Positions 1,814-64,000 of a stretch of DNA of 64,000 bases are shown one piece after another (position 1 is the stretch's first letter; each line of letters starts with the position of its first letter). Under the pieces are notes generated by a model that had not been told where the DNA came from, did not search any database, and was given only the letters and a program-made list of their open reading frames with translations. Origin of the DNA: a virus; the IMG/VR virus record IMGVR_UViG_3300042465_000293, positions 3,241 to 67,240 of that record; one strand, written 5' to 3'. Position numbers and translations under genes: made by a program.

Positions 1814-1909
1814 TTCGTTCTCCAGCGCAAACGGCATAACGGAGCGAAGTGGGTGTCCCACTCGCTCGTCGCCGTCGAAGTTCTAATCTAACCGAACGCG
1901 CAGTGCGCG

Positions 1910-6433: not shown

Positions 6434-6454
6434 CTTCGTTCTCCTGTTATGTTG

Positions 6455-7230: not shown

Positions 7231-7700
7231 TTCGTTCTCTCCACAATAGGGCGCATCCTGCGCTGTTTATATTCCTCGTCCACGATCTTGAATGCACGTT
7301 CCATGTCCTTGACTGTGATAGCGTCCATCTGTGCATCGTGTAACTCCATCAGGGTATTCAGGGCTCTCATCTCCGCAGACCGCAAGATAAACCGTCCATT
7401 CTCAGCGCCGCGCTTACCCACTGCATGCAAGGCATCAAGCCCCGTACTCACCTCTGTTGCGTAGTCACGACCAAACCCCATGCGATACAACGCTTCCACA
7501 AAGTTAGCCATGGGTATCAGCGTATCCATGTCTTCACGTGTTGCCTTGCCTTGCGTCAGGTTGGTCATGGCCATGTGGTTCTTGATCTTCAGGTCAATCA
7601 AGAAGTTGTCGTGCTTTGCCACGGGGGTCATGCTTTCAATGACGTACGCCATCGGATTCATGATCACCCCTTTGGGTCTGTACTTGCTACGCTTACGCAT
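7227..7700 (-). CDS. Conserved hypothetical phage protein (MRKRSKYRPK)
   Basis: 157-aa coupled ORF. Confidence 0.75.
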   Translation of the reverse strand: MRKRSKYRPKGVIMNPMAYVIESMTPVAKHDNFLIDLKIKNHMAMTNLTQGKATREDMDTLIPMANFVEALYRMGFGRDYATEVSTGLDALHAVGKRGAENGRFILRSAEMRALNTLMELHDAQMDAITVKDMERAFKIVDEEYKQRRMRPIVERTK

Positions 7701-8568: not shown

Positions 8569-8616
8569 CTTCGTTTCCTTTTAAAGTTAGGTACGTGAAG
8601 CGCACGTACCAACGCA

Positions 8617-10977: not shown

Positions 10978-11006
10978 CTTCGTTTTCCTTTTATGGTTTA
11001 GTTTGG

Positions 11007-13615: not shown

Positions 13616-14515
13616 TTAGAAGCCCAGTGAGGGCAGGTTGTCGATAGTCTTGCGAACTTCGTTCACCTTGCGTCTTGTCTCTGCACGCAGATACGGGTCT
13701 TCACGCAGAGCATCAGGTGTTATGCCACGCATCGCTTCATCGAGGTCACGCTGTGCGGCAATCATCACGGGGTCGCCTGTCACGTTGCATGCACCGAGCA
13801 ACTCGATGATGTCCGTCACGTTTGACACGAGTGAATCGCGGAACACCTTGCGGGTCATGTCGTCAGCGTAGTCGAGGCGTTCTGACATCTTTGTCAGTGC
13901 ATCGTGCGCTCTGCGCCACACGTCACCCATCGCGGCTTGTAGCTGTGTGGCGTAGTAACCCTCGTACTGAGAACGCAGGGCGTCTTCGGTCTCGTTGCCG
14001 ATGCTCACACGCCAGTCACCCGCATCAGGCAGGGGCATGTAGTTCATCTTGAATCGAAACTTAGAAGTCAAGCTGTCAGCGGATGGATACTCGTCAGCGT
14101 TGAACAAGTCACCGAGCTTGAGTTGGGCATTCTGAATCTCCCACGAGTACGCATCGAGGAACGCTTGCACGAGGCGTTGGTATTCGTTCTGTAACGCTGT
14201 CATTTCGCTGTGATACTTGAAGTATTGTGTTGTTGGCAACAAGCGCAGACCTGTGTCAGACCATGGCATGGTGCATGCGTAGTGCACGTTACGTGCATTG
14301 GCTGTGAACTTCTGCACCGCATCCAATTCGGCACAGTCACCGAGGAGTTTCTTGTGCACGTTGGCCACGCCCTTGTCAGCATGGTTGCTTGTGGTCACAT
14401 CTTGTGAGGCACGTTTGTCGAGCTTGCGCCCTGTCCATGTGCCGATGGATAGTTCAACGAGCATTGCCGCTGTTGAGATGGATGGCACCGCTGTGCCTGT
14501 CATTGAGTTTGTCAT
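13616..14515 (-). CDS. Conserved phage protein next to the AAA/vWA pair (DUF3150-like)
   Basis: MLVELSIGTWTGRKLD, PWSDTGLRLLP, YPSADSL, FRDSLV; context. Confidence 0.7.
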   Translation of the reverse strand: MTNSMTGTAVPSISTAAMLVELSIGTWTGRKLDKRASQDVTTSNHADKGVANVHKKLLGDCAELDAVQKFTANARNVHYACTMPWSDTGLRLLPTTQYFKYHSEMTALQNEYQRLVQAFLDAYSWEIQNAQLKLGDLFNADEYPSADSLTSKFRFKMNYMPLPDAGDWRVSIGNETEDALRSQYEGYYATQLQAAMGDVWRRAHDALTKMSERLDYADDMTRKVFRDSLVSNVTDIIELLGACNVTGDPVMIAAQRDLDEAMRGITPDALREDPYLRAETRRKVNEVRKTIDNLPSLGF

Positions 14516-52155: not shown

Positions 52156-55100
52156 ATGCCGCTGTACCAGATCACCGGCCCTGACGGTAATCTCTATGAG
52201 ATCGAAGGGCCAGAAGGTGCAACTCGTCAGCAGGTGATTGCTGCTGTTCAAAAGCGTATGTCCTCCCAAGAGGACACGAATCTTGAGTCGCGTCTGCAAC
52301 AGCTACGCGCCGAGCGTGAGGAATTGCTCAAGCCAAAACCTACTGTTGGTGGAAGCATTAAAGAGTTTGGCAAGGGGTTGGTTCCCGGTGCAATTAACTT
52401 GCTTGAGACAGCAGGTACTGGTATCAGCGCGTTGTTGCCCGACGATACTGAGAAGGCCGCACGTGAGAAAATTAAAGAGCTTGCTGGTATTGCCAAGAAG
52501 CCTTTTGAAGCTGGCGCTGGGTATGAAGATTCAGTAATGCGCAAGTTAGGTGAGGGCTTAGGCTCTACCCTGCCGTTCTTTGCCGCTGGCCCACTTGGTT
52601 TGGCTGGCCGTGTTGCCGCTGGTGGTCTTGGCGTTGCCGCTGGCGCTGGTGAAGCACGTGAGTCTGCCGAAGCCAAAGGTGCTACGGGTGAAGAACGACG
52701 TTTGGCTACACAACTTGGTGCACCTACTGGTTTGCTTGACTTACTGGCACCGCAGATTAAACCATTTAAGAGTATTGTAGGTACTGCATTTGCACGTGGT
52801 GGCGTTGAGGGTGCAACCGAAGCGGCACAGAAAGTTGCCCAGAACTTAATTGCCAAGGGCGTCTACGACCCCCAGCAGGAAATTCTTGTCGGGTCTGGCG
52901 AAGAAGGCGCGTATGGCGCTGGAGTCGGTGCACTGGCCAGCTTGATCATTGACATGACCATTGGCCGTAAGGCTCGTCGCGCATCGTTGGGGCTTGATAA
53001 AGAAGCGCCCGAGGAAAAAACTCCTGATGCTTTACGGTTGACGGGGGAAGCTCCGTTTACCCCTGTGGGTTTACCTGACGGCTCAGTAGCAATGACCCGT
53101 GAGGACTTGGCCGCATACGAAGAATCAAAGTTTAAAGACAAGTACGCCCCACAAGATGCGGCACCGCGCTTGCGTGAAAAAGACACCGTAGGAACTCAGG
53201 GTGAGTTGTATCCAAGTGAGCGAGATAGCGCCCTCATTCAACTATCTCAGATAGAAGGGCCACAGCGCCAAGCCCCCGCAGACTTTGAGTTGGAGATGCA
53301 AGAGGCACCCCGTGGAGTACAGCAAGAACTTGACTTGCAACCACGGATTGAACGAGATACCCAAACACGTGACATGATTGACGATCTGGAGGAAACCCAA
53401 CAGATTGAAGAACTGTACGCAAAAGATGAGCGCGAAGCTGCCAAGATCAGAGCGGAAAAAGAACGTCTGAAGTTTGAGTCTGACCTTGCCGAATTGACTG
53501 GTAGGGTAGAGCGCAAACAGGAAAAAACAAGCGCGGATAACCGCCTTCAAATCCTACTGCCGATTGTTGAAGCTAAAGCCAACAACATCCGCAAAGTATT
53601 TGTGCAAGCTCTCAAGCGTGAAGGGTTCACCAATCCTAACCTGACCGAGCGAGAACAAAAACTCATTAACCGTGCCTACGACATTCGTTTGGCTGAAGAA
53701 CCTGCGGTTGAAGCTGAGCCGGTAATAGAAGCCTCCGAGGAGCAAAAGAAAGAACTGCGATCCATCGAGTCGCTCATTCCTGAGAAGAAGTCACAGCGTG
53801 AACCTGAACAGATGGGTTTCCCGGGCATGGGTAAGCCGAAGGGTGCCGCACCCCAAGCCTTCTCTGAGGAGGAGCTTGCATCCCAAGAAAAACCATTTGC
53901 TACGGTGCTGACACCCGAGGTATTGGCCAAGGCTGGCCTACCAAAACAATCTGGTTTCTACAAGCAGTTGCTCAACTTAGACATGGCTGATGCCGTTCAA
54001 CAGCCTACGGTTGCTCACATCTTCGGGCGTATTCGTGAGAATCCCAACTTATCCACATCTACTAAAGATGCGGTTGAGAACTTAGCAATGCAAGCGTTTG
54101 GGGGTCTGGCCAAACAAGGTGACATGTTTGTACCCGCTAAGCCAATTAAGGCTGCCAAGGAGGGCAAGAAAGATGCGACTGCAACAAAACCCGCAGCCGG
54201 AAAACCCGCTGAACGAGGACGTGATAAGGACGCAGGAGATGTCGCTGGAGGAACTGGAACTCGCACTGAAGATCGCAAACCAAGCGGTGCAAAGGACGAG
54301 CGCACTGGAGCCCCTGCTGATACCAAGCGAACTGAAACACCTAAGCCCACTGGACTGGGAGATCGTGGGAAACCTACTGGTGACACTGGAGTGCGAAAAG
54401 GCGTGGAGCCTACTACACTAAAGAAGGCCAAGCCAGAAGCCAAGCCAGAAGCCAAGCCAGAAGCTAAACCCGAAGTTAGGGGTAAACCCGAAGCCAAAAC
54501 TGATAAGCCTCAACCCAACGCAAGTCTTGGTGCATACGGCCAAGTAATGGAAGCTGAGAGCCGGTCTGATGCGCTCGACTATTTGGCCTATGACATGTAT
54601 GTGGCCATGTTTGAGAAGCACAAACTGCTGACTCGCATCAACAAGCTCAACGACATTACTGCACAGTTGCGCAACGGCATTCCCGTTGACGATATTGCTT
54701 TTGGTCGTGAAGGTACAACCTCTATCGTCCCGTTGAGTGGCGGCAAGTATGCCAAAGCGTTCTACGAATCCCTGTCGGCGGCTGACAAGCGGGCGTTAGC
54801 CAAGAAGATGTCAGACTACTTTAATAAGTCTGAAGCAGAGGTGCGTCGAGGCTCTACCCAATTCAATGTCCAACAAGAGTTGTCTCGTGCTACCAAAGAG
54901 CAGATGGACGGTGAGCAACTTGAACTCTCTCGTGATGCAGTAGTGTTGGCACTGCCTTTGCACCCTGCCATCCGTAAGGCGCTGAAAGCTGGTGATCTGC
55001 GTGGAGCCCTGACTATGTTGGGCTCGCAGAACCTTGGCCGTGCATCCGAAGTCGCCAAGAAATTGGCTGGCGCGATGGGCAAAACCAAAGTTGAATTAGA

Positions 55101-58100
55101 GCCTATGCTCCTCAACGCCGAGGACATTCCAGTCGCTGGCCTGTACGACCCTAAGACAGACACCATCAAGCTGGACGCGGAGGAAGGTTTAAACCTTCAC
55201 GTGCTATTACATGAATCGGTACATGCCGCTACATCACATGTCATAGATAACAAGTCACACCCTGTAACTAAACAACTTACAGAGCTTTACAACAATGTCA
55301 AAGACTCGCTGGACACAGCGTACGGCGCACAGTCTTTGGATGAGTTTGTTGCCGAGGCTTTCAGCAACCCTGAGTTCCAGCAACAGTTGGCGGCAATCAA
55401 TCCCAAGGGTGAGGCAATCACTGCATGGCAACGCTTCATGCACGCCATCCGCAACTTTGTGCGGTCAATCATGGGTAAAGAAACCAAGGGTATGGGCTCC
55501 GCACTCGACGCCTCTGATTCGTTGATCAACACCATCTTGTCGCCTGCACCTGAATCTCGTGAGGCAGGCTCGTTGTTCTCAGCATCGTTGCTGGGAAAAA
55601 GCTCCGCAGTCTTCAAGACCTTGGACAACCGAATCCTGTCGCTACCGGCGCTGGACAACAAGATCGTTGGTGGCATCTATGAGTTGTTCCGTGAGGGTGT
55701 GCCCTCTGCTGTTCAGAAGTTGGTGCGCCGTAGCTTGCCGCTCAATGCACTGACTGAGGTTGCAAAAGAAGACATCCCCATGGCACCCAAGCTCGATGAG
55801 TTGGAGAAGCGTTGGGGCGGTGCAATCGACAAGCGCAAGCGTGCGACCGAAGCCACCATGAAGCGCATCCAGAACTGGGTAAAGGGTAACCCCGAGAAAG
55901 AAGTTATCCTGAACGATGTCATCGCTACCAGCACGCTGGAGCAGGTTGACCCATCTAAGTCCCGTGATGATTACAAGGGCAAGCAATCCGAAAGCGGTGC
56001 CGATAAACAAAAGATTTGGGATGAGTTGCAACCACAGTGGAACAAGCTCGGCCCCGAGGGTCAGAGTGTCTACAAACAGATGCGCGACACGTACGCAAAA
56101 ACGTACGACGATTTACTTGACTTGATGTTCAACCGCATCGACAACTCAGTGGAGAACAAAGAAGATGCCAAGAAACTCAAGACTGAGATTTACCAGCGTC
56201 TTGCCACCAAGGGTAAGATCGAGCCGTACTTCCCCCTGACACGTAATGGTGACTACCGCTTGTCGTACGACGGCAAGGGTCGTGATGGCAACTTGGAGCA
56301 CTTCGTCGAACACTTCGAGACTTCGGTTGAGCGTGAGCGTGCGATCAAAGAGTTGGAGAAAGAAGGCGGTGTCAAGAACATCCAGCGATTCAAAGGTGGC
56401 TCCAAGCGCACCTACAAAGATGCACCTCCTACCTCGTTCGTGAACTCTATCTTGCGAACACTTGAAGCCAACAAAGTTGATCCAGAAGTCACCGATGAGA
56501 TCATGCGTACGTTCTTGTCAACGCTTCCTGAGTCGTCGTTTGCCCAAGCGTTCCGCAAGCGTAAGAACACGCCCGGCTTTAGCTTTGATGCACCCGCCGC
56601 TTTCTTTACACGCTCCATGGGTATGGCACACCAACTGGCCAACCTTGAGTACAGCGGCAAGATGTACCAACTGCGCGACGAGATTGACAAGCACGTCAAG
56701 GAAAAGAACAACACCGAACGCGCCCGTGGGCTGGCCGACGAGTTGAACAGCCACATCCAAACGCTGGTCAGTCCTGACATCGCCCCATGGTCTAAGGCTT
56801 TGACATCCACCGCTTTTGCATGGACGCTGGGCTTTAACGTATCGTCTGCCGTGGTCAACATGTCGCAGGTGCCGTTGGTGCTGATGCCTTACCTTGGTGG
56901 TAAGTACGGCTACTCCGAAACCACGAAAGCCATCGGCTCAGCTACCAAGTTGTTCTTTGGTAGTGGCCTCAAGCGTAACGCAGAAATGTCTGTGCCCACG
57001 GCTGACGGCAAGTCTAAGATTGAGATAAGTGCTGGCTTCTCGCTGGACAACTACGACTTTGATGCCAAAGACACGCCGCCTGAAATCAAACGCCTCAAAG
57101 AGTTGTCGCAGATGGCTGAAGACTACGGTCTGCTGAGCCGCTCAATGACGCATGACATCTTGGACATGGACGAGAAGTCTACGCCTTTGAACCGTGTGAA
57201 CGCATGGTCTGGTTTCATCTTCCACCATGGCGAGCGCATGAACCGCCAAATCTCGTTGATCGCATCCTATGAGCTTGAGCTTGATCGGATGACCAAGGAA
57301 GGTAAGAAGATTGACAGTGCCGCACGCACCGAGGCGGCCAAACGCGCAATCCAAACCACCGAACTGCTGAACGGTGGTGCATCGGCTGGCAGTGCGCCGT
57401 TGCTCGCAAAGAACTCAATTGGCAAGATCATGTTCATGTACAAGCGGTACGGTGTTTCCATGTACTACATGATGTTCAAGACGGCCCGTGAAGCCATGAA
57501 GTCTGAGGACAAGAAAGTCCGTGAAGCCGCCATGCGTCAGATCGTTGGCATCTATGCCTCCGCTGGCATGATGGCTGGGGTGCAGGGTCTGCCGATGTTC
57601 GGTATCTTGGCCGCTGTCTACAACTTGTTCAAGGGTGATGATGAGGATGATGCTGAAACCGCTGCCCGTAAGTATCTCGGTGAAGGTCTGTTCAACGGCG
57701 CGGTCAACTACCTGACTGGTACGGCTGTCGCCAACCGTATTGGCTTGTCTGACCTGCTGATCAACAGCACCGGATACCGTGAGCAAGACAACGCAGTGCT
57801 GGCATTCTTGCAACTCATGGGTGGCCCAGTCTATGGCGTAGCCGACCGGATACAGCAAGGTGTCAAGTTGATCAATGAGGGTGAGACTGAGCGCGGCTTG
57901 GAGCGTATGCTCCCCGCAGGTATTGCCAACGGCTTCAAGGGTATCCGCTTTGCAACCGAGGGTGCCAATACCCTGCGTGGTGACCCGATCACCGGTGAGA
58001 TGCACCCTGCCAATGCGTACGCTCAGATATTTGGGTTTGCGCCTGCCGAGTACACCCGCCAGTTGGAGATCAATGCGTCTCTCAAGAACATTGAGCGCCG

Positions 58101-58371
58101 TGCTACCAAGGAACGTACCAAGGTGTTGCGCGACTACTACATCGCCGCACGAAACGGTGACGCAGATGGCATGAGTGATGCACTGGACGACATGTTTAAG
58201 TTCAACAAGTTGCACCCTACGGCGGCAATCACAGCCGAGACTGTCCAGAACTCAATGGCGCAACACATGAAGACATCGCAGGAGATGTACCACGGTGTGA
58301 CTCTGAACAAGAAGCTCCGCCCTGAGTTGTTACAGAACGCGGCTGAGTACGACAACGGGTTGCTGGACTGA
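52156..58371 (+). CDS. Large polyvalent internal virion protein with zincin metallopeptidase-like domain
   Basis: 2071 aa; GLYDPKTDTI...LLHESVHAA...DEFVAEAFSN; YFPLTR; KPEA repeats. Confidence 0.75.
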   Translation: MPLYQITGPDGNLYEIEGPEGATRQQVIAAVQKRMSSQEDTNLESRLQQLRAEREELLKPKPTVGGSIKEFGKGLVPGAINLLETAGTGISALLPDDTEKAAREKIKELAGIAKKPFEAGAGYEDSVMRKLGEGLGSTLPFFAAGPLGLAGRVAAGGLGVAAGAGEARESAEAKGATGEERRLATQLGAPTGLLDLLAPQIKPFKSIVGTAFARGGVEGATEAAQKVAQNLIAKGVYDPQQEILVGSGEEGAYGAGVGALASLIIDMTIGRKARRASLGLDKEAPEEKTPDALRLTGEAPFTPVGLPDGSVAMTREDLAAYEESKFKDKYAPQDAAPRLREKDTVGTQGELYPSERDSALIQLSQIEGPQRQAPADFELEMQEAPRGVQQELDLQPRIERDTQTRDMIDDLEETQQIEELYAKDEREAAKIRAEKERLKFESDLAELTGRVERKQEKTSADNRLQILLPIVEAKANNIRKVFVQALKREGFTNPNLTEREQKLINRAYDIRLAEEPAVEAEPVIEASEEQKKELRSIESLIPEKKSQREPEQMGFPGMGKPKGAAPQAFSEEELASQEKPFATVLTPEVLAKAGLPKQSGFYKQLLNLDMADAVQQPTVAHIFGRIRENPNLSTSTKDAVENLAMQAFGGLAKQGDMFVPAKPIKAAKEGKKDATATKPAAGKPAERGRDKDAGDVAGGTGTRTEDRKPSGAKDERTGAPADTKRTETPKPTGLGDRGKPTGDTGVRKGVEPTTLKKAKPEAKPEAKPEAKPEVRGKPEAKTDKPQPNASLGAYGQVMEAESRSDALDYLAYDMYVAMFEKHKLLTRINKLNDITAQLRNGIPVDDIAFGREGTTSIVPLSGGKYAKAFYESLSAADKRALAKKMSDYFNKSEAEVRRGSTQFNVQQELSRATKEQMDGEQLELSRDAVVLALPLHPAIRKALKAGDLRGALTMLGSQNLGRASEVAKKLAGAMGKTKVELEPMLLNAEDIPVAGLYDPKTDTIKLDAEEGLNLHVLLHESVHAATSHVIDNKSHPVTKQLTELYNNVKDSLDTAYGAQSLDEFVAEAFSNPEFQQQLAAINPKGEAITAWQRFMHAIRNFVRSIMGKETKGMGSALDASDSLINTILSPAPESREAGSLFSASLLGKSSAVFKTLDNRILSLPALDNKIVGGIYELFREGVPSAVQKLVRRSLPLNALTEVAKEDIPMAPKLDELEKRWGGAIDKRKRATEATMKRIQNWVKGNPEKEVILNDVIATSTLEQVDPSKSRDDYKGKQSESGADKQKIWDELQPQWNKLGPEGQSVYKQMRDTYAKTYDDLLDLMFNRIDNSVENKEDAKKLKTEIYQRLATKGKIEPYFPLTRNGDYRLSYDGKGRDGNLEHFVEHFETSVERERAIKELEKEGGVKNIQRFKGGSKRTYKDAPPTSFVNSILRTLEANKVDPEVTDEIMRTFLSTLPESSFAQAFRKRKNTPGFSFDAPAAFFTRSMGMAHQLANLEYSGKMYQLRDEIDKHVKEKNNTERARGLADELNSHIQTLVSPDIAPWSKALTSTAFAWTLGFNVSSAVVNMSQVPLVLMPYLGGKYGYSETTKAIGSATKLFFGSGLKRNAEMSVPTADGKSKIEISAGFSLDNYDFDAKDTPPEIKRLKELSQMAEDYGLLSRSMTHDILDMDEKSTPLNRVNAWSGFIFHHGERMNRQISLIASYELELDRMTKEGKKIDSAARTEAAKRAIQTTELLNGGASAGSAPLLAKNSIGKIMFMYKRYGVSMYYMMFKTAREAMKSEDKKVREAAMRQIVGIYASAGMMAGVQGLPMFGILAAVYNLFKGDDEDDAETAARKYLGEGLFNGAVNYLTGTAVANRIGLSDLLINSTGYREQDNAVLAFLQLMGGPVYGVADRIQQGVKLINEGETERGLERMLPAGIANGFKGIRFATEGANTLRGDPITGEMHPANAYAQIFGFAPAEYTRQLEINASLKNIERRATKERTKVLRDYYIAARNGDADGMSDALDDMFKFNKLHPTAAITAETVQNSMAQHMKTSQEMYHGVTLNKKLRPELLQNAAEYDNGLLD

Positions 58372-58372
58372 T

Positions 58373-58403
58373 AAAAAAACCCCCGCTTGTGACGGCGGGG
58401 GTT
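58373..58403. terminator. Terminator at the convergence of the two arms; U tract on the minus strand
   Basis: aaaaaaacccccgc-ttgtgacg-gcgggggtt. Confidence 0.85.
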
Positions 58404-58446
58404 AAATCTCTTTTCAAGGAGAAACGAAGTGACAGGCAACCTGTCG
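58373..58446 (-). ncRNA. Predicted trans-acting anti-RBS small RNA (~75 nt)
   Basis: Promoter TTCGCA-17-TAGTAT (58480-58452), 5' hairpin GACAGG/CCUGUC, core CACUUCGUUUCUCCUU, intrinsic terminator. Confidence 0.6.
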
Positions 58447-58457
58447 GGGCGATACTA

Positions 58458-58721
58458 TCACAACCTTCTCCAAATGCGAACCCCCCAGTAGCCACCTTCA
58501 ATACCCGGGCGGTAGTGGACAACCCACTCCCATTGACTTGTTATCTGGTGAACCTGTCTGACGAGTTCCAACGTATTTACGCAAGGAATGAACACAGAGG
58601 CACCCGCTGGAAACTTGTCCCAGCGGACAACGATACGCACCCCATCGGGTGCGAGATCGTCAAGCCTGACCCTGTTTCTCGAACAGCGCGGCGGTTGTCG
58701 CCAGAGCTTGCTCAGTTTCAT
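58458..58721 (-). CDS. Small conserved protein (WDKFPAGASVFIPC...GVRIWR)
   Basis: Last gene of the replication arm; start uncertain. Confidence 0.7.
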   Translation of the reverse strand: MKLSKLWRQPPRCSRNRVRLDDLAPDGVRIVVRWDKFPAGASVFIPCVNTLELVRQVHQITSQWEWVVHYRPGIEGGYWGVRIWRRL

Positions 58722-61515
58722 CGTCCATAAACCCTGTGCAATCCAACACTAAAACATCGGTGGGGGGCATGTTGATGTGGGTGCCCTTACCGAGTCGAAC
58801 CTTGGCTTTGACTGCCTTGGTGCTTCCCGTTTTCAGACCGTCAACAAACCCTGCGTAGTTGATCTGTTGCTTGCCGCACCATGCCTTGAGGGGCTTGATC
58901 AGCAGGTACAGCTTCTTTACGTCATACTCATACCTCGCAACAAACTGACCACGAGGAGAACTGTCGGGCACCACGATCTTGTCGAGTGAGCCAGCAGTAT
59001 TCCGTGCATCTTCTGTTGACGTGATGCGGAGCATGTTGTTGTAGTTCTCGGCCATGTAGTCAGTCAGTTGGGCTTCGACGTTTACATTCATCTCACCCAC
59101 CATGACTTTGGCATCAGCCATCACTTTGACAATCCACTGCACAATCGGTGCAATCTGCCAAGTGATCAGACCAGCTTTCTTGAGCAACATCAAACCTGCA
59201 ATGGTGCGTGAAGCCAAGGCAGACCAATAGCGATTCTCAGCAGACAAACTCGACGCCGCATCAAGTTTGCGTTGCACTGTCATGGCAAGTTCTTTGACCG
59301 CATCCAAGTTGTTCAGGATGTACTGGATGTAGACCACACCCGCATGCCCAAAGTTTTCCTTGATGTCGGTGCTGAATACATCGGTCTCGGACTTGGTAGC
59401 AAACTTCACAGGCTCAACTCGGTACTCCAACACACGCTGAGCTTCCGCTTGCGGCAGAGCTTTGAACAGTGCGATGCGTTCAAGTATTGAGGTGTTACCC
59501 GTGGTGCCGAACAGAGTCTTCCAAGGCTTGCCACGTACGCGCTCGACGTTGCCTTTCGGCCCCATGCGGTTGCGTTGCAGACCACTCGGCAGTTGGTACG
59601 CCCAGTCAGACAAGTCTTGCGGCTTGGTGTTGGTCATCTCGTCCATGTAGCAGACGATGTTTTTGTACACCTCGGCACGGTTCATCTTTGAGTTGAACGT
59701 GTCACGCTCTTGCATCACCAACAGGTCGGGGTCACCCCAAATAGATGCACCTGCGTACATGGCAGTGGTCTTACCCAAACCGGAGCCCTTGCTCCATGCG
59801 TGAAAGGCGGCGGCGTTGATCGGCTGAAACTCCATCAGGACAGAGCCCAGCGACAGCCCAAACATGAATTGGTGCAACTCCATGTTCGGTTGGTTGTAGA
59901 ACTCCATGGTCTGCTTCCACTTCTCCAACGAGCCCTTGGCCTTGAAGATCGGGAACAGCCCCACGGTAGCGGCAGAGGGTGAACTCACCTCAACACGGTC
60001 TTTGAAAACTTCCATGTTGCCAATGACGAACGACTCGTGTTTGTCGTCCTTCCACCCAAATTGCCGACATGCTTCGTCGGCTTCAGAATTAAACTGTAAC
60101 TCGTTTACCCATCTCATCGTGTACTCCATCAGTTCTTGTACGTTCAGGACTGCTACACCCTGTGCCGCAAGTTGTTTGCGAAACTCATCCTTCGTGCCCA
60201 CAGCAGTCAACGGCAACGTGAACTCACGTACGCCATCCTTTGGCAAGTGCAAACGCATCACCAATGACTCACCCGCTTCGGGGTCTTTGACGCGCCGTAT
60301 GACGTACAGGTCATTGAAATAAACCATCACGTCTTTGTCTTCACCCTCGGCATTCTTGGAATGCTTAAACACACCACCACTCTTACCCCTGAAGAATGGG
60401 TGCGGGTACTTGGGAATCGTGTAACGAATCGGCGTAGCCGCAGTTACGTCCAGTGGTTTTTGAATGACGATGTTGTCGGACTCGTCAGCTTCCTCTACCT
60501 CACGCCCAAGAGAGATCGGTGACTTGATCTTGTTCCAGTGCTTGCACTCGGGGCAGACACCTGCGCGGTACTCGTCAAAACGTGTGCACAGGTATGGGCC
60601 TTTGATCAGGTCAACCTTCTGCTCGGTTCCTTCGGGGGTGTACTCAGGGTGCTTGAGAGAAATCTTGTGGATTGCTTTACCACCATCAACACAGAACTTG
60701 GCAATCGACAACCCCGCCCTCCACAGAGGCTCAGAGATGTTTGGCTGGTTGTTGACAACTTCTTTGAGTTGTTCGCACCCAGTGCCGCTCATGGTCTTGA
60801 TCAGAATAGTCTTGAAGCGACTCACGAAACTGCCCGACAGGGCTTGCATCATGGCATCCTGCTGTTGCGGCATGTACTTCTTCGGAGGCACCAAGATAGA
60901 TGAGTCGTCACCCATGAGGTCACGGAACACGTCAAACTCAACGGGCGCACCTGCTTCCCCCACAATATGCACGAGGGCAGGGGGGTTAGGCTTATGGTTG
61001 TGCGTATTGGGTACTCGCAACACACGCGCCGCATCTGCCGGTACAGCAGGGTCATTGCGCATCCCCTGCTTTGCACACAAGCGTTTGAATTGCTCAGCAA
61101 CAGGCACCCATGTTTCACGTGAAACAGGAGCGGTCAGTGGCCAGTACACATGGATACCACGCCCCGAATTTACGATGGTCGGGCGCGGTAGCTTCAGTTC
61201 TTTACAGAACGTGCGTAGTGCGGCAAGAGCTTCGCTCTGTGTCGCGTAGTCTTTTGTTGGCCCACAGTCAAGGTCAAGAAAGAATGATCTAAGTTGTTTT
61301 ACGTTGGGTGCCTTGCGAGACCCAGCTTGGTCAAAAGTGCCCAACGCAAAATAAGCGTCATACCCTTCAGCATCTAAATTGTGAGCAGCATGGATTGCGG
61401 CATCAAGGTTGTCGTAGAACTTCTGTACCTTGCGTTCATCGGATAGCCGATATGCAAATATGCAGTAGTGCCCTTCGTCCCCCAGTACCGACTCCAGAAA
61501 TTTTTTTGTTTCCAT
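58660..61515 (-). CDS. Primase-helicase (AEP/RepB-like primase + DUF927 + P-loop helicase)
   Basis: FFLDLDCG, SGRGIHVYW, RVLRVP, Cys cluster, GSGLGKTT, MDEMTN. Confidence 0.88.
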   Translation of the reverse strand: METKKFLESVLGDEGHYCIFAYRLSDERKVQKFYDNLDAAIHAAHNLDAEGYDAYFALGTFDQAGSRKAPNVKQLRSFFLDLDCGPTKDYATQSEALAALRTFCKELKLPRPTIVNSGRGIHVYWPLTAPVSRETWVPVAEQFKRLCAKQGMRNDPAVPADAARVLRVPNTHNHKPNPPALVHIVGEAGAPVEFDVFRDLMGDDSSILVPPKKYMPQQQDAMMQALSGSFVSRFKTILIKTMSGTGCEQLKEVVNNQPNISEPLWRAGLSIAKFCVDGGKAIHKISLKHPEYTPEGTEQKVDLIKGPYLCTRFDEYRAGVCPECKHWNKIKSPISLGREVEEADESDNIVIQKPLDVTAATPIRYTIPKYPHPFFRGKSGGVFKHSKNAEGEDKDVMVYFNDLYVIRRVKDPEAGESLVMRLHLPKDGVREFTLPLTAVGTKDEFRKQLAAQGVAVLNVQELMEYTMRWVNELQFNSEADEACRQFGWKDDKHESFVIGNMEVFKDRVEVSSPSAATVGLFPIFKAKGSLEKWKQTMEFYNQPNMELHQFMFGLSLGSVLMEFQPINAAAFHAWSKGSGLGKTTAMYAGASIWGDPDLLVMQERDTFNSKMNRAEVYKNIVCYMDEMTNTKPQDLSDWAYQLPSGLQRNRMGPKGNVERVRGKPWKTLFGTTGNTSILERIALFKALPQAEAQRVLEYRVEPVKFATKSETDVFSTDIKENFGHAGVVYIQYILNNLDAVKELAMTVQRKLDAASSLSAENRYWSALASRTIAGLMLLKKAGLITWQIAPIVQWIVKVMADAKVMVGEMNVNVEAQLTDYMAENYNNMLRITSTEDARNTAGSLDKIVVPDSSPRGQFVARYEYDVKKLYLLIKPLKAWCGKQQINYAGFVDGLKTGSTKAVKAKVRLGKGTHINMPPTDVLVLDCTGFMDDETEQALATTAALFEKQGQA

Positions 61516-61548: not shown

Positions 61549-61578
61549 AAAAGAAAGGGTGGGGAGCGACCCCACCCT
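61549..61578 (-). terminator. Intrinsic terminator between SSB and primase genes
   Basis: agggtgggg-tcgct-ccccaccct-ttctttt on the minus strand. Confidence 0.75.
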
Positions 61579-62545: not shown

Positions 62546-62809
62546 TTAAATATCTTCGTCAGGGTTGTTGAATGCCAATTCAAGTTGAACAGGCAGTTTG
62601 GGGTCTACGGCTTTTGGTGCTTCCGGTTCGTCCTTGGGTACGCTTGAAAGGGCTTTGACCACCGCAGGTACGTTAAAGCGGTATGTGTTACCGATCTTTA
62701 GATACGTGTCTTTGGGGATGTAGCCCTGTCGTACCCATGCACGAACAGTCGATACCGAAACCGTAAACTGTTTGGCCAAGTCTTCGATTGGCACAAATGG
62801 TTCACTCAT
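62546..62809 (-). CDS. MerR/excisionase-like HTH DNA-binding protein
   Basis: IEDLAKQFTVSVSTVRAWVRQGYIP...IGNTYRF. Confidence 0.8.
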   Translation of the reverse strand: MSEPFVPIEDLAKQFTVSVSTVRAWVRQGYIPKDTYLKIGNTYRFNVPAVVKALSSVPKDEPEAPKAVDPKLPVQLELAFNNPDEDI

Positions 62810-63225
62810 TACTTTCTCCTTACGGTTATGGTGTACTCGCTATCCACGTTGAGTCCCGGTGGTAACGTGTCAGGATTGGCCTCAAGGAACTCTTTGAGGT
62901 TGGTTTGATGTATGCGCTCATGCAGTAACTGCGGCGCATTGTGCTCAACGATGAACTTGTGCATCGACTCCCAGTCGTTTGTCCAATAGTTCACCTTGAC
63001 GGTGCGATAGAACAAGCCTTCGCCTGTGCGTACGCTGTCTACGTTTTGCTCTTTACAGAAACCCAAGAGGGCAGACTTTACCTTGTCCATCTGTCCTTTG
63101 AGCTTCTTCTCCTCAGTCTCGTAGGCCACACGCATCTCGTCGTGCTTGGCCTTCATCTTGAGGTACACCCTGACCAGCTTTTCGGGGGCTACGGCAGGGG
63201 TTGCGGGGGTTGCTTCGTCTGTCAC
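62809..63225 (-). CDS. Conserved replication-module protein (partial second copy at 1-221)
   Basis: LVRVYLKMK...SVRTGEG...DWESMHKF...PPGLN; GTG start with GGAG SD. Confidence 0.8.
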   Translation of the reverse strand: MTDEATPATPAVAPEKLVRVYLKMKAKHDEMRVAYETEEKKLKGQMDKVKSALLGFCKEQNVDSVRTGEGLFYRTVKVNYWTNDWESMHKFIVEHNAPQLLHERIHQTNLKEFLEANPDTLPPGLNVDSEYTITVRRK

Positions 63226-64000
63226 TTCGTTCTCCGTTTGTTGTTGGGGTTTTTATTATAGTGGCGTTTTACCAATTATTCAAGTATTTCTTTGTAAAGA
63301 TCAACTATTTTTGAGTGAACGTCGATTTTATTATCTAATAAGTTGTAAACGTGTCTTTCTACACCTGACCCCACCAGTTGTACCACTGTAGAGGGGTGAC
63401 GCTGACCCGAACGATGGACTCGGGCGTTGGCTTGGGCGTAAGTCTCAAGGGAGGATGTCGGCCCCCACCACACCACCGTATTGGCCGCTGTGAGGGTCAC
63501 GCCGTGCGCGGCGGCTTGTGGTTGGATGACAAGTACCTTGGTGCCGTTTGGCTCGGTCTGGAAGCGATTAAAGATGTCGGTGCGTTTGTGCACGGGCACA
63601 TCGCCACTGATCACCTCGGTTGTGTAGCCGTCAGCGTTGAGCTTGTCGGTCAGGATGCTGATCACATGCTTGAACGGCACGAACACAAGCACCTTCTGAC
63701 TTGACTCGTCAATCACCTCGGTCAGCACGTTGTAGCGGTTCTTGATGTCGAACTCCAAGGTCTCGCCTGAGTCGGAGTACACCGCACCACAAGATATTTG
63801 CAGGAGCTTGGACATGTTCACTGCGGCGTTGACCGATGTGATTTCTTCCCCTGCGGCTTGCACCACCATGCGACTCTTGAGCATGCCGTAGTAGCGTTCC
63901 TGTTGCTTGGTCAACTCGACTCGGCGCTTGGTGTAGGTCATCTCAGGCAAGTCAAGGCACTCGTCCTTGGTGTACCTGATGGCGGGTTGCAAGCACTCGA
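63005..64000. repeat. Terminal redundancy, copy 2 (includes the 3' part of the SNF2 helicase gene again)
   Basis: Same sequence as 1-996. Confidence 0.97.
63255..63283 (-). promoter_or_regulatory. Sigma70 promoter TTGAAT-17-TATAAT for the SSB/primase operon (also at 251-279)
   Basis: Consensus -10, 17-bp spacer, overlaps the helicase stop. Confidence 0.75.

Follow-up and report, generated by a model that had tools for sequence, protein, structure and literature searches.

What purpose might be served by a short non-coding sequence at the point where the two gene arms of a virus genome converge? The DNA examined here (the window, 64,000 nt) comprises bases 3241-67240 of the IMG/VR virus record IMGVR_UViG_3300042465_000293, which is 67,240 nt long and rated 100% complete. 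On its minus strand, at the end of an early operon that closes with a primase gene and a small gene of 87 amino acids (aa), lies a predicted RNA unit of about 73 nt. A preliminary description of this DNA had proposed a phage small RNA (sRNA) antisense to the ribosome-binding sites of seven early or replication genes. Comparison with related loci leads me to a narrower answer: this is probably a conserved antisense RNA, likely a primary sRNA, that would repress translation of the first gene and of the 314-aa gene of its own operon.

Anatomy of the unit

Read on the minus strand, the unit is entered from within the last gene of the operon. A -35-like hexamer and TAGTAT (58457-58452) stand 17 nt apart, and the TGA just ahead of TAGTAT (58460-58458) is the stop codon of the 87-aa open reading frame (ORF, 58721-58458). 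There follow a 5' hairpin, a CU-rich stretch (CACTTCGTTTCTCCTT, 58431-58416) that is complementary to the Shine-Dalgarno (SD) sequence, an A/U-rich linker and an intrinsic terminator (Table 1). Of the two hairpin arms, the 3' one belongs to the antisense stretch and the 5' one repeats the first codons of the target. Hairpin, CU motif and terminator occur together only once in the genome.

Folding of 58445-58372 (74 nt) yields -28.9 kcal/mol (z = -4.34), as good a value being reached by 1 of 200 shuffles. The CUCC core has a mean unpaired probability of 0.72 over 64 unique RNAs and is unpaired with a probability of at least 0.5 in 51 of the 64; RNAalifold, run on a MAFFT alignment that is not a structural alignment, returned only 5 pairs, joining the CU stretch to a terminator arm. 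The terminator at 58403-58373 is the only strong one on the minus strand after the operon, stands directly 3' of the seed and is shared with the parental mRNA, as in sRNAs of the DapZ and MicL type. It also follows the convergent plus-strand 2071-aa gene, whose stop codon falls 1 nt ahead of the A-run of this shared terminator. The RNA would be a primary sRNA or else form the 3' end of the mRNA of the primase operon.

The RNAs of some relatives vary the theme. In L047-L051 an AGGAG further downstream (CTCCTTAGAGGAG) is the predicted pairing partner of the CUCCU seed, which makes for a self-sequestered anti-SD, and in L050 the unpaired probability falls to 0.22. L077-L087, L098, L099, L075 and L078 have a further anti-SD-like motif in their 5' hairpin loop (CCACCTCC or TCTCTCC, for instance), and with two CU-rich sites these distant-clade RNAs resemble the Burkholderia double-hairpin and Neisseria NmsR sRNAs.

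Table 1. Coordinates of the predicted RNA unit, its candidate targets and the associated operon features in the window.
Feature	Position	Strand	Evidence
Predicted ~73-nt RNA: 5' hairpin, antisense seed, terminator	58373..58445	-	sequence, fold, conservation
-35-like hexamer TTCGCA (4/6), inside coding sequence	58475..58480	-	sequence
Extended -10 element TGATAGTAT (TGn + TAGTAT)	58452..58460	-	sequence, conservation
5' hairpin GACAGG-TTG-CCTGTC, starting 7 nt past the -10 element	58431..58445	-	sequence, compensatory variants
Antisense seed CTGTCACTTCGTTTCTCCTT: 3' hairpin arm plus single-stranded CU-rich linker	58416..58435	-	complementarity, covariation
Intrinsic terminator, stem 58403-58378, T7 (U7 in RNA) 58379-58373	58373..58403	-	terminator call
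Predicted primary target: SD to codon 2 of 138-aa first gene, GTG 63225-63223	63219..63235	-	complementarity, duplex, covariation
Predicted second target: 314-aa gene start region GGAGAAACGAA	62533..62543	-	11-nt perfect match
Candidate target: 167-aa gene start region, upstream of polA	6434..6445	-	second-best duplex, -22.9 kcal/mol
Candidate target: 119-aa gene start region	8569..8580	-	-18.9 kcal/mol
Candidate target: 311-aa gene start region	10978..10990	-	-17.8 kcal/mol
Weak candidate target: 63-aa gene start region	7231..7242	-	-19.3 kcal/mol
Weak candidate target: SNF2 helicase start region, TTG start	1814..1823	-	duplex -14.3 kcal/mol
Conserved 87-aa ORF, overlapping the primase stop, last operon gene	58458..58721	-	codon-like variation, protein alignment
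Operon promoter TTGAAT-17-TATAAT, sigma-70-like	63255..63283	-	10/12 match, best in scanned 8 kb

Conservation of the unit and its predicted promoter

Related loci were gathered in two IMG/VR scans with the primase, at identities from 97% down to 50%. Of the 98 loci examined, the window included, one was too short and 97 could be assessed. In 89 of these the TGA at the stop of the small ORF runs on into TA; in 87 of the 89 a CUCC follows within 95 nt, and 80 have the complete set of features. The other 8 loci lack the RNA unit, and in them the small ORF always ends in TAA or TAG. TGATA is invariant in all 62 aligned sequences. Among 71 unique sequences the hexamer after TGA has T at position 1 and A at position 2 without exception (71/71 each), A at position 5 in 58 and T at position 6 in 67, positions 3 and 4 being free. 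Sigma-70 -10 elements are known for just such an information profile (T1, A2 and T6 with an upstream TG). Read on the plus strand, the mirror hexamer has the key second-position A in only 32 of the 71 (those with T at position 4) and lacks it in 39.

The rest of the unit is likewise maintained. A T-run of at least 5 follows the terminator stem in 80 of the 89 element-bearing loci, the 5' hairpin appears in compensatory variants (GACAT..ATGTC, CAACAAG..CTTGTTG, GGTGGC..GCCACC) and is missing in L018, L058, L064 and L065, and non-coding positions of the unit are retained at primase identities down to about 50%. By comparison with 97 related loci, the layout of hairpin, seed and terminator set out in the preliminary description is a conserved one. 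That description had also placed the promoter in the 3' end of the last replication gene, an accurate wording: the -10-like element overlaps the stop of the 87-aa ORF, and the codon-like variation in the alignment of this ORF marks it as a real coding sequence. The TTCGCA position varies in relatives with the codons of a G-V-R-I/F-W motif, and because it follows this coding constraint its conservation alone is uninformative. It is the extended -10 element and its conservation that suggest a promoter.

Predicted targets within the genome

Which mRNAs could such an RNA recognise? Start regions of 80 genes were scored, 34 on the minus strand (early) and 46 on the plus strand (late). On the minus strand only, the motif GGA[GA]A{1,3}CGAA and a variant of it occur at 63235, 62543, 10988, 8578, 7242, 6444 and 1823, each time directly ahead of the start codon of a minus-strand gene; sites at 231 and -461 are copies produced by the terminal overlap of the record. 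The one plus-strand occurrence of this SD-spacer motif, at 58418, is the RNA locus itself. CGAA falls within the last 9 nt before the start in 7/34 minus-strand and 1/46 plus-strand genes. A possible late-gene counterpart, ATC before the start, was discarded as no clear class mark (8/46 plus-strand vs 4/34 minus-strand genes).

The best partner is the start region of the 138-aa first gene, which is complementary to the RNA at 17 of 18 positions with one bulge, 13 of them contiguous across the GTG, and whose duplex of -25.9 kcal/mol is the best of the 80; the own-type pairing joins CGAAGTGACAG to CTGTCACTTCG. With 11 of 11 positions matched at the 314-aa cistron as well, the RNA pairs in silico with two initiation regions of its own operon, as is typical of OppZ and CarZ. 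Every coordinate and string in the preliminary description is present in the sequence, among them the 13-nt exact match that includes the GTG and the seven sites, all of them before minus-strand start codons. The unit is indeed antisense to SD-to-start regions. The step from seven sites to a regulon of seven genes fares less well. By energy only the 138-aa and 167-aa start regions stand out, and the other five blend into the continuum of SD-bearing starts.

Seed shuffles give a similarly divided result. In 400 shuffles that kept CTCC, the best duplex averaged -21.0 +/- 2.3 kcal/mol and 16 were as good as the real -25.9; start regions at or below -18 numbered 8 with the real seed and 3.4 +/- 2.3 with shuffled ones, 22 of the 400 reaching 8. 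A stricter control that kept TCTCCTT had 25 and 51 of 400 at these two values, and overall the best, second-best and target-count values were matched by 14-51 of 400 shuffles, depending on measure and control. The preference for early over late genes is of another order: minus-strand start regions pair better by 2.81 kcal/mol (a difference of -2.81), which none of the 400 shuffles reaches, and the Mann-Whitney p is 0.0018 (n = 34 and 46). Thus, of the pairing expected to exceed SD-keeping shuffles, the early-over-late preference does so clearly and the best-duplex and count values do so moderately.

Relatives separate the seven sites further. The homologue of the 167-aa gene in G004, a complete genome of 96% identity, retains the motif with one extra A; that of the 119-aa gene in G003 has a 10-nt perfect match with the different seed of that genome; and that of the 311-aa gene in G001 has GAGGGACGAGA, which as read by eye forms 11 pairs, one of them G-U, with the seed TCTCGTCTCTC. 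The 63-aa gene has no homologue in G001, G003 or G004. At the helicase start the motif is kept in near relatives and does not track the seed in L034, L035 and L036. I therefore regard two targets, the 138-aa and 314-aa genes, as well supported on this comparison and two to three more as plausible; the set of seven is not established.

The exact 11-mer occurs in G004 only at the first gene and the RNA locus, and the SD-spacer motif lies there on a partly different set of genes than in the window. In G004 (L118-L121), AAGGAAACGAAG precedes the ATG of the homologue of the gene at 13616-14515 of the window, which itself has no motif. Because the G004 gene has it and its homologue here does not, the motif is mosaic in its distribution among the early genes of close relatives.

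Covariation of seed and start regions

The evidence that carries most weight comes from relatives whose seeds differ. Covariation was tested over 25 seed clusters with 20,000 permutations. The longest complementary match has a mean of 9.84 nt in cognate and 8.62 nt in non-cognate combinations, and duplex energy over the candidate start regions is -19.4 for cognate vs -16.7 kcal/mol for non-cognate ones; none of the 20,000 permutations reaches either value, for the energies also after double-centring. Eight of the 25 seeds rank their own locus first. Duplexes of the whole RNA core with all starts of four genomes gave noisy long pairings, and seed-only analyses were used instead. In the four-genome matrix, read row by row, the best early set of each seed is that of its own clade, with effects of only 1-2 kcal/mol.

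Individual lineages show how the match is kept. Compensatory changes at the start region of the first gene are found in L020/L021, where ATG in the target meets CAT in the seed (17/17), in L054, where CGAGATG pairs with CATCTCG through two linked changes (19/19), and in L055, whose 14-nt match reaches into the 5' flank. Elsewhere the match to the own start lies in lineage-specific flanks: in L034 (12 nt including one G-U), L036, L061, L072/L074, L077/L079/L086 (11 nt in the 5' flank of the SD) and L098/L099 (in L098, AACT pairs with AGTT). At the position homologous to the 314-aa gene start there are matches of 13 nt in L112, despite a seed without CUCC, of 11 nt in L031 and L077/L079, and of 10 nt in L061, L072 and L074. 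These comparisons support covariation of the seed with the start regions of both the first gene and the 314-aa gene. The preliminary description had looked to related genomes for just such compensatory changes between seed and ribosome-binding-site spacer, and they are there, the most distant clusters excepted.

How the RNA may act

Both transcripts, that of the operon and the short RNA, would be made by the RNA polymerase of the host, the short RNA most likely as a primary sRNA of about 73 nt from the extended -10 promoter (TGnTAnnnT) overlapping the stop of the last ORF; the same sequence would also be present as the 3' untranslated region (UTR) of the full operon mRNA. As this RNA, or the 3' end of the operon itself, accumulates, it would pair with the 314-aa cistron and, in the first cistron, with the stretch from -12 to +5. 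The seed, made up of the CU-rich stretch and the 3' arm of the 5' hairpin, would bind SD-to-start regions, probably nucleating at the accessible CU stretch and then opening the hairpin, and the 30S binding site would thereby be occluded. A few further early genes with the same SD-spacer motif are probably paired too. Because the 138-aa and helix-turn-helix (HTH) genes overlap by one base, the block may spread by translational coupling. The outcome would be a delayed negative feedback on, or shut-off of, early protein synthesis, comparable to OppZ/CarZ autoregulation or to P1 c4.

A CA-rich tract (CAACAACAAAC-like, with AAC repeats) stands ahead of the first-gene SD at 63236-63250 on the minus strand and in most relatives (sites in L002-L062). 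Its role might be that of a translational enhancer or of an (ARN)n site for the distal face of Hfq; tract, A/U-rich linker and U-tail would all be compatible with dependence on Hfq.

Because the best target is in the RNA's own operon, an autoregulatory loop accounts for the data no less well than a regulon-wide switch would, and an early-to-late switch may reasonably be supposed. The preliminary description had added a carrier state in a phage with no evident repressor or integrase. Pfam matches to an integrase or resolvase are indeed missing from the genome; an HTH protein is nevertheless encoded in the target operon, and no evidence speaks for a carrier state. More tentatively, and with greater doubt than hope, one may extend the idea to a whole group of uncultivated phages (primase identity down to about 50%): a single anti-SD RNA may serve as a class-specific translational off-switch, its seed co-evolving with a lineage-specific "address" in the spacer of early genes. 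Between SD and start, the window would have GGAGAACGAAG as its address, the L035/L043 clade GGAGAGACC and L054/L057 a CGAGA form; the 5' hairpin would be a built-in strand-displacement gate, and one RNA would silence a changing, mosaic set of early mRNAs and leave late mRNAs untouched.

Contrary evidence and alternative explanations

Several observations weigh against an antisense sRNA with its own promoter. The -35 element is poor and coding-constrained; a generic promoter scan missed the minus-strand site, which matches at 8 of 12 positions, and listed instead two promoter-like sites on the plus strand at 58429-58458. A discrete RNA and its start site are predictions from sequence. A search of sequencing runs listed six with small shares (0.05-0.10), none recorded as RNA and all labelled as probably DNA, and the assembled contigs of four of them gave short stretches of relatives, mostly less than 95% alike. 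Hairpin energies do not favour the minus strand, which folds better in 22 cases, the plus strand doing so in 36 with 6 ties; G-U pairs as a mark of the minus strand, an impression from L009 and L019, were withdrawn after this comparison. The within-genome excess of good targets is modest, being equalled by 16-51 of 400 shuffles (p about 0.04-0.13). As for covariation, the four-genome matrix is not cleanly diagonal when read by column, the most distant clusters (L082, L088, L103, L108, L111) show no cognate excess, L023, L028 and L062 retain an uncompensated A-C opposite the start codon, and the one base by which the U-runs of the window and of G004 differ has no counterpart in their start regions.

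How else might these data be read? A serious variant, unlikely as I judge it, is a purely cis mechanism in which there is no separate sRNA: the anti-SD stretch in the 3' UTR of the operon mRNA would reach the start region of the first cistron through back-folding of the same molecule or, only after processing, pair with sister transcripts. The weak -35 element and a best target in the same operon both suit it, and with no strong terminator between the 87-aa ORF and 58403 the element must in any case belong to the operon transcript. It offers no obvious explanation for the TGA+TAnnnT pattern and its strict co-occurrence with the element (89 vs 8 loci); a hairpin 6-9 nt after the -10 element fits the protected 5' end of a primary transcript, and start regions outside the operon also bear the motif. 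That the sequence has no specific function, being a CU-rich spacer before a terminator that matches the SD by chance and is conserved by linkage only, is already disfavoured and very improbable. Any RNA with CUCC pairs with an SD, and the target excess within the genome is indeed borderline; chance and linkage do not account for cognate pairing that exceeds non-cognate pairing in all 20,000 permutations on two measures, for double compensatory changes, or for non-coding positions kept at primase identities to about 50%.

Two further readings, each of which I consider highly implausible, place the function elsewhere than in a minus-strand RNA. In one the plus strand is functional, as the ribosome-binding site of a 20-codon ORF at 58429 (AAGGAG stands 7 nt ahead of its GTG) or as a start-region mimic or decoy on read-through late transcripts. 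A mimic would also show covariation, the hairpin folds about equally well on this strand, and promoter-like sites were called on it, as noted above. A start codon at SD spacing is present in only 33 of 71 unique elements, with ORF lengths scattered from 4 to 100 codons, and on these grounds the mini-ORF, which the preliminary description had itself raised as a competing account, was rejected. The plus-strand -10 lacks its A in 39 of 71 sequences, a T-run follows the stem in all lineages only on the minus strand, and the sub-threshold Rfam matches described below are on that strand. In the other reading the inverted 17-19-bp copies at the two ends of the operon would act as DNA, either as operators of the HTH protein or as partners in recombination or gene conversion. 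They do flank a module of 4.8 kb with a gene for an HTH protein, GACAGG..CCTGTC forms a palindrome at the DNA level whose sequence, beyond its pairing, is widely conserved, and the 12-nt match of L036 adjoins the -35 element, outside the mRNA. Yet the shared sequence is not dyad-symmetric, its invariant core is the exact SD complement, the covarying bases lie between SD and start codon, bulges and G-U pairs are tolerated, and the motif also stands at intra-operon start regions far from promoters. An antisense RNA acting on the first and 314-aa cistrons remains the best explanation.

The operon and the genome around it

Bases 1-996 of the window repeat 63005-64000, the terminal overlap of the record being 4,236 nt; the true genome size is about 63.0 kb (63,004 bp), and on the evidence of this overlap the genome is circular or permuted. 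Sites 231 and 63235 share their context for the same reason, and a 238-aa ORF at 63276-63992 is the C-terminal portion of the helicase gene at 272-1861. Minus-strand genes run from about 16,700 down to 1 (= 64000) and onward to 58458, encoding an SNF2 helicase, PolA, a prim-pol/DUF927 primase and an HTH protein. Plus-strand structural genes occupy 17,037-58,371, and the arms converge at 58372-58457. In the virion arm, the C-terminal 700 residues of the 2071-aa protein (52156-58371, plus strand) match PHROG 10089, "DarB-like antirestriction" (E 5e-82).

The last minus-strand operon, with an mRNA of 4.9 kb, contains in order the 138-aa gene, an 87-aa HTH gene, the 314-aa gene, the 951-aa primase gene and the 87-aa ORF. 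Its first gene (62809-63225, minus strand) matches PHROG 13900, "minor head protein" (E 2.7e-18), an odd company for replication genes. The 314-aa gene had been named as a single-stranded DNA-binding protein in the preliminary description, an assignment that finds no backing: it has no Pfam match, and its only PHROG match is a family without known function. Between the 314-aa and primase genes (61556-61578, minus strand) there is a hairpin with a T-rich tail that resembles a terminator and may partly uncouple the first three cistrons from primase expression.

The small 87-aa protein occurs even in clades without the RNA. Its alignment of 34 sequences has 10 invariant residues; relatives are 73-100 aa long and share P-D-G, W, S-x-F and G-x-R-x-W-R. 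It belongs to no Pfam or PHROG family. An AlphaFold model (mean pLDDT 84.6) has a beta-alpha-beta-beta core, with no significant fold match (Foldseek against PDB, best E 0.21; VIA-align wide, best Z 5.4, which is noise). R3H/KhpB-like and IF3-like proteins are among the weak Foldseek rows, as a hint only.

No close cultured relative emerged from the phage collection searched: blastn of 57800-59200 gave no match, and the best tblastn match of the primase was Pseudomonas phage Rollin at 29% identity. A primase-alignment scan of genome contigs returned a single 7.7-kb contig of a metagenome-assembled genome at 50% identity, which gives no reliable host.

Comparison with known RNAs

At gathering thresholds, Rfam has no family in the window. 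The best permissive match is RF02278 (Betaproteobacteria_toxic_sRNA), full-length on the minus strand at 58372-58447 with 34.7 bits and E 8e-6. Its gathering threshold of 50 bits is reached neither in the window nor in any of the 11 relatives' loci searched; L012, L002 and L024 score 36.7, 35.7 and 31.7 bits, and the other 8 have no match at E <= 0.1. RF02837 (anti-hemB) scores 28.3 bits in the window, 29.1 in L002 and 25.8 in L032, all below its gathering score of 49.5. These full-length sub-threshold matches are on the minus strand only and to anti-SD sRNA families, and they point, if faintly, to a betaproteobacterium as a possible host. For 58340-58500, none of the 27 Rfam rows at E <= 10 is a c4 family; whether the library includes a c4 model was not checked.

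In the excerpted text of PMC5688073, RF02278 RNAs ("toxic small RNAs" or double-hairpin RNAs; Burkholderia ncS03/05/27/62) are about 60-90 nt long; they have a terminator hairpin and, in unpaired stretches rich in C and U, complementarity to ribosome-binding sites. The predicted RNA has an unpaired CU-rich stretch of this kind and a terminator hairpin too, whereas the sRNAs of that excerpt are chromosomal and multi-copy and target metabolic genes (PMC5688073). The first hairpin of the model aligns here with non-standard pairs and is not formed, and the RNA of the window has one hairpin more, at its 5' end.

OppZ and CarZ of Vibrio cholerae are autoregulatory sRNAs derived from 3' UTRs (Hoyos et al. 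2020, as summarised in part of the review PMC9438474). The predicted RNA would share with them, so far as that summary goes, its place at the 3' end of a polycistronic operon, the shared terminator, the pairing with a start region of its own operon and a negative feedback that needs full-length transcription (PMC9438474). OppZ differs, in the same account, in being released by RNase E, having no promoter of its own, targeting an internal cistron and acting through Rho-dependent termination (PMC9438474). DapZ of Salmonella and MicL, as the review outlines them, are sRNAs whose promoter is embedded in the upstream ORF; like DapZ, the unit has a predicted promoter at a stop codon, with a conserved TGnTAnnnT (89 loci with both, 8 with neither), whereas DapZ, in that outline, is bacterial and targets unrelated transporter mRNAs and not its own operon (PMC9438474). 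Unlike OppZ, the unit here has a -10-like element that points to a primary transcript; its main target would be the first cistron, with other early genes as possible targets, and it is phage-encoded. It has no sequence relationship to OppZ or CarZ.

The c4 RNA of phages P1 and P7 lies in one operon with its target, upstream of it, is processed from a precursor and serves immunity in a temperate phage. The unit described here, unlike c4, stands at the 3' end of its operon, in a genome without an integrase or resolvase match. According to the available portion of PMC12197685, c4 of P1/P7 binds around the ribosome-binding site of a phage mRNA and blocks its translation; the predicted RNA would resemble it as a phage-encoded antisense RNA aimed at such a site (PMC12197685). 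PreS/LPR1 of lambda, in the part of its report at hand, is a phage-encoded base-pairing sRNA that tunes the infection cycle (10.1101/2024.10.31.621285), as the present RNA is predicted to be a phage-encoded base-pairing sRNA. There, PreS acts on the host genes dnaN and alaS and activates dnaN, whereas here the start regions of the phage's own early genes would be addressed (10.1101/2024.10.31.621285).

At the level of listings and abstracts, the literature contained no description of this RNA or of any anti-SD sRNA located where a phage primase operon ends. The unit would be a new RNA family, of a kind of regulator already known. Few phage-encoded base-pairing RNAs are known to regulate genes of their own phage, and most of these come from temperate model phages.

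What began as a prediction from letters has now gained strong comparative support, as an RNA family in about 90 environmental phage contigs whose natural compensatory mutations form a ready-made mutational series. If the prediction is true, OppZ-type autoregulation from the 3' UTR and DapZ-type promoters embedded in ORFs would extend to phage replication operons, and seed and start region would make a compact, programmable pair. The multi-gene version, if true, would open to experiment the way in which phages keep early and late translation apart with no protein factor involved.

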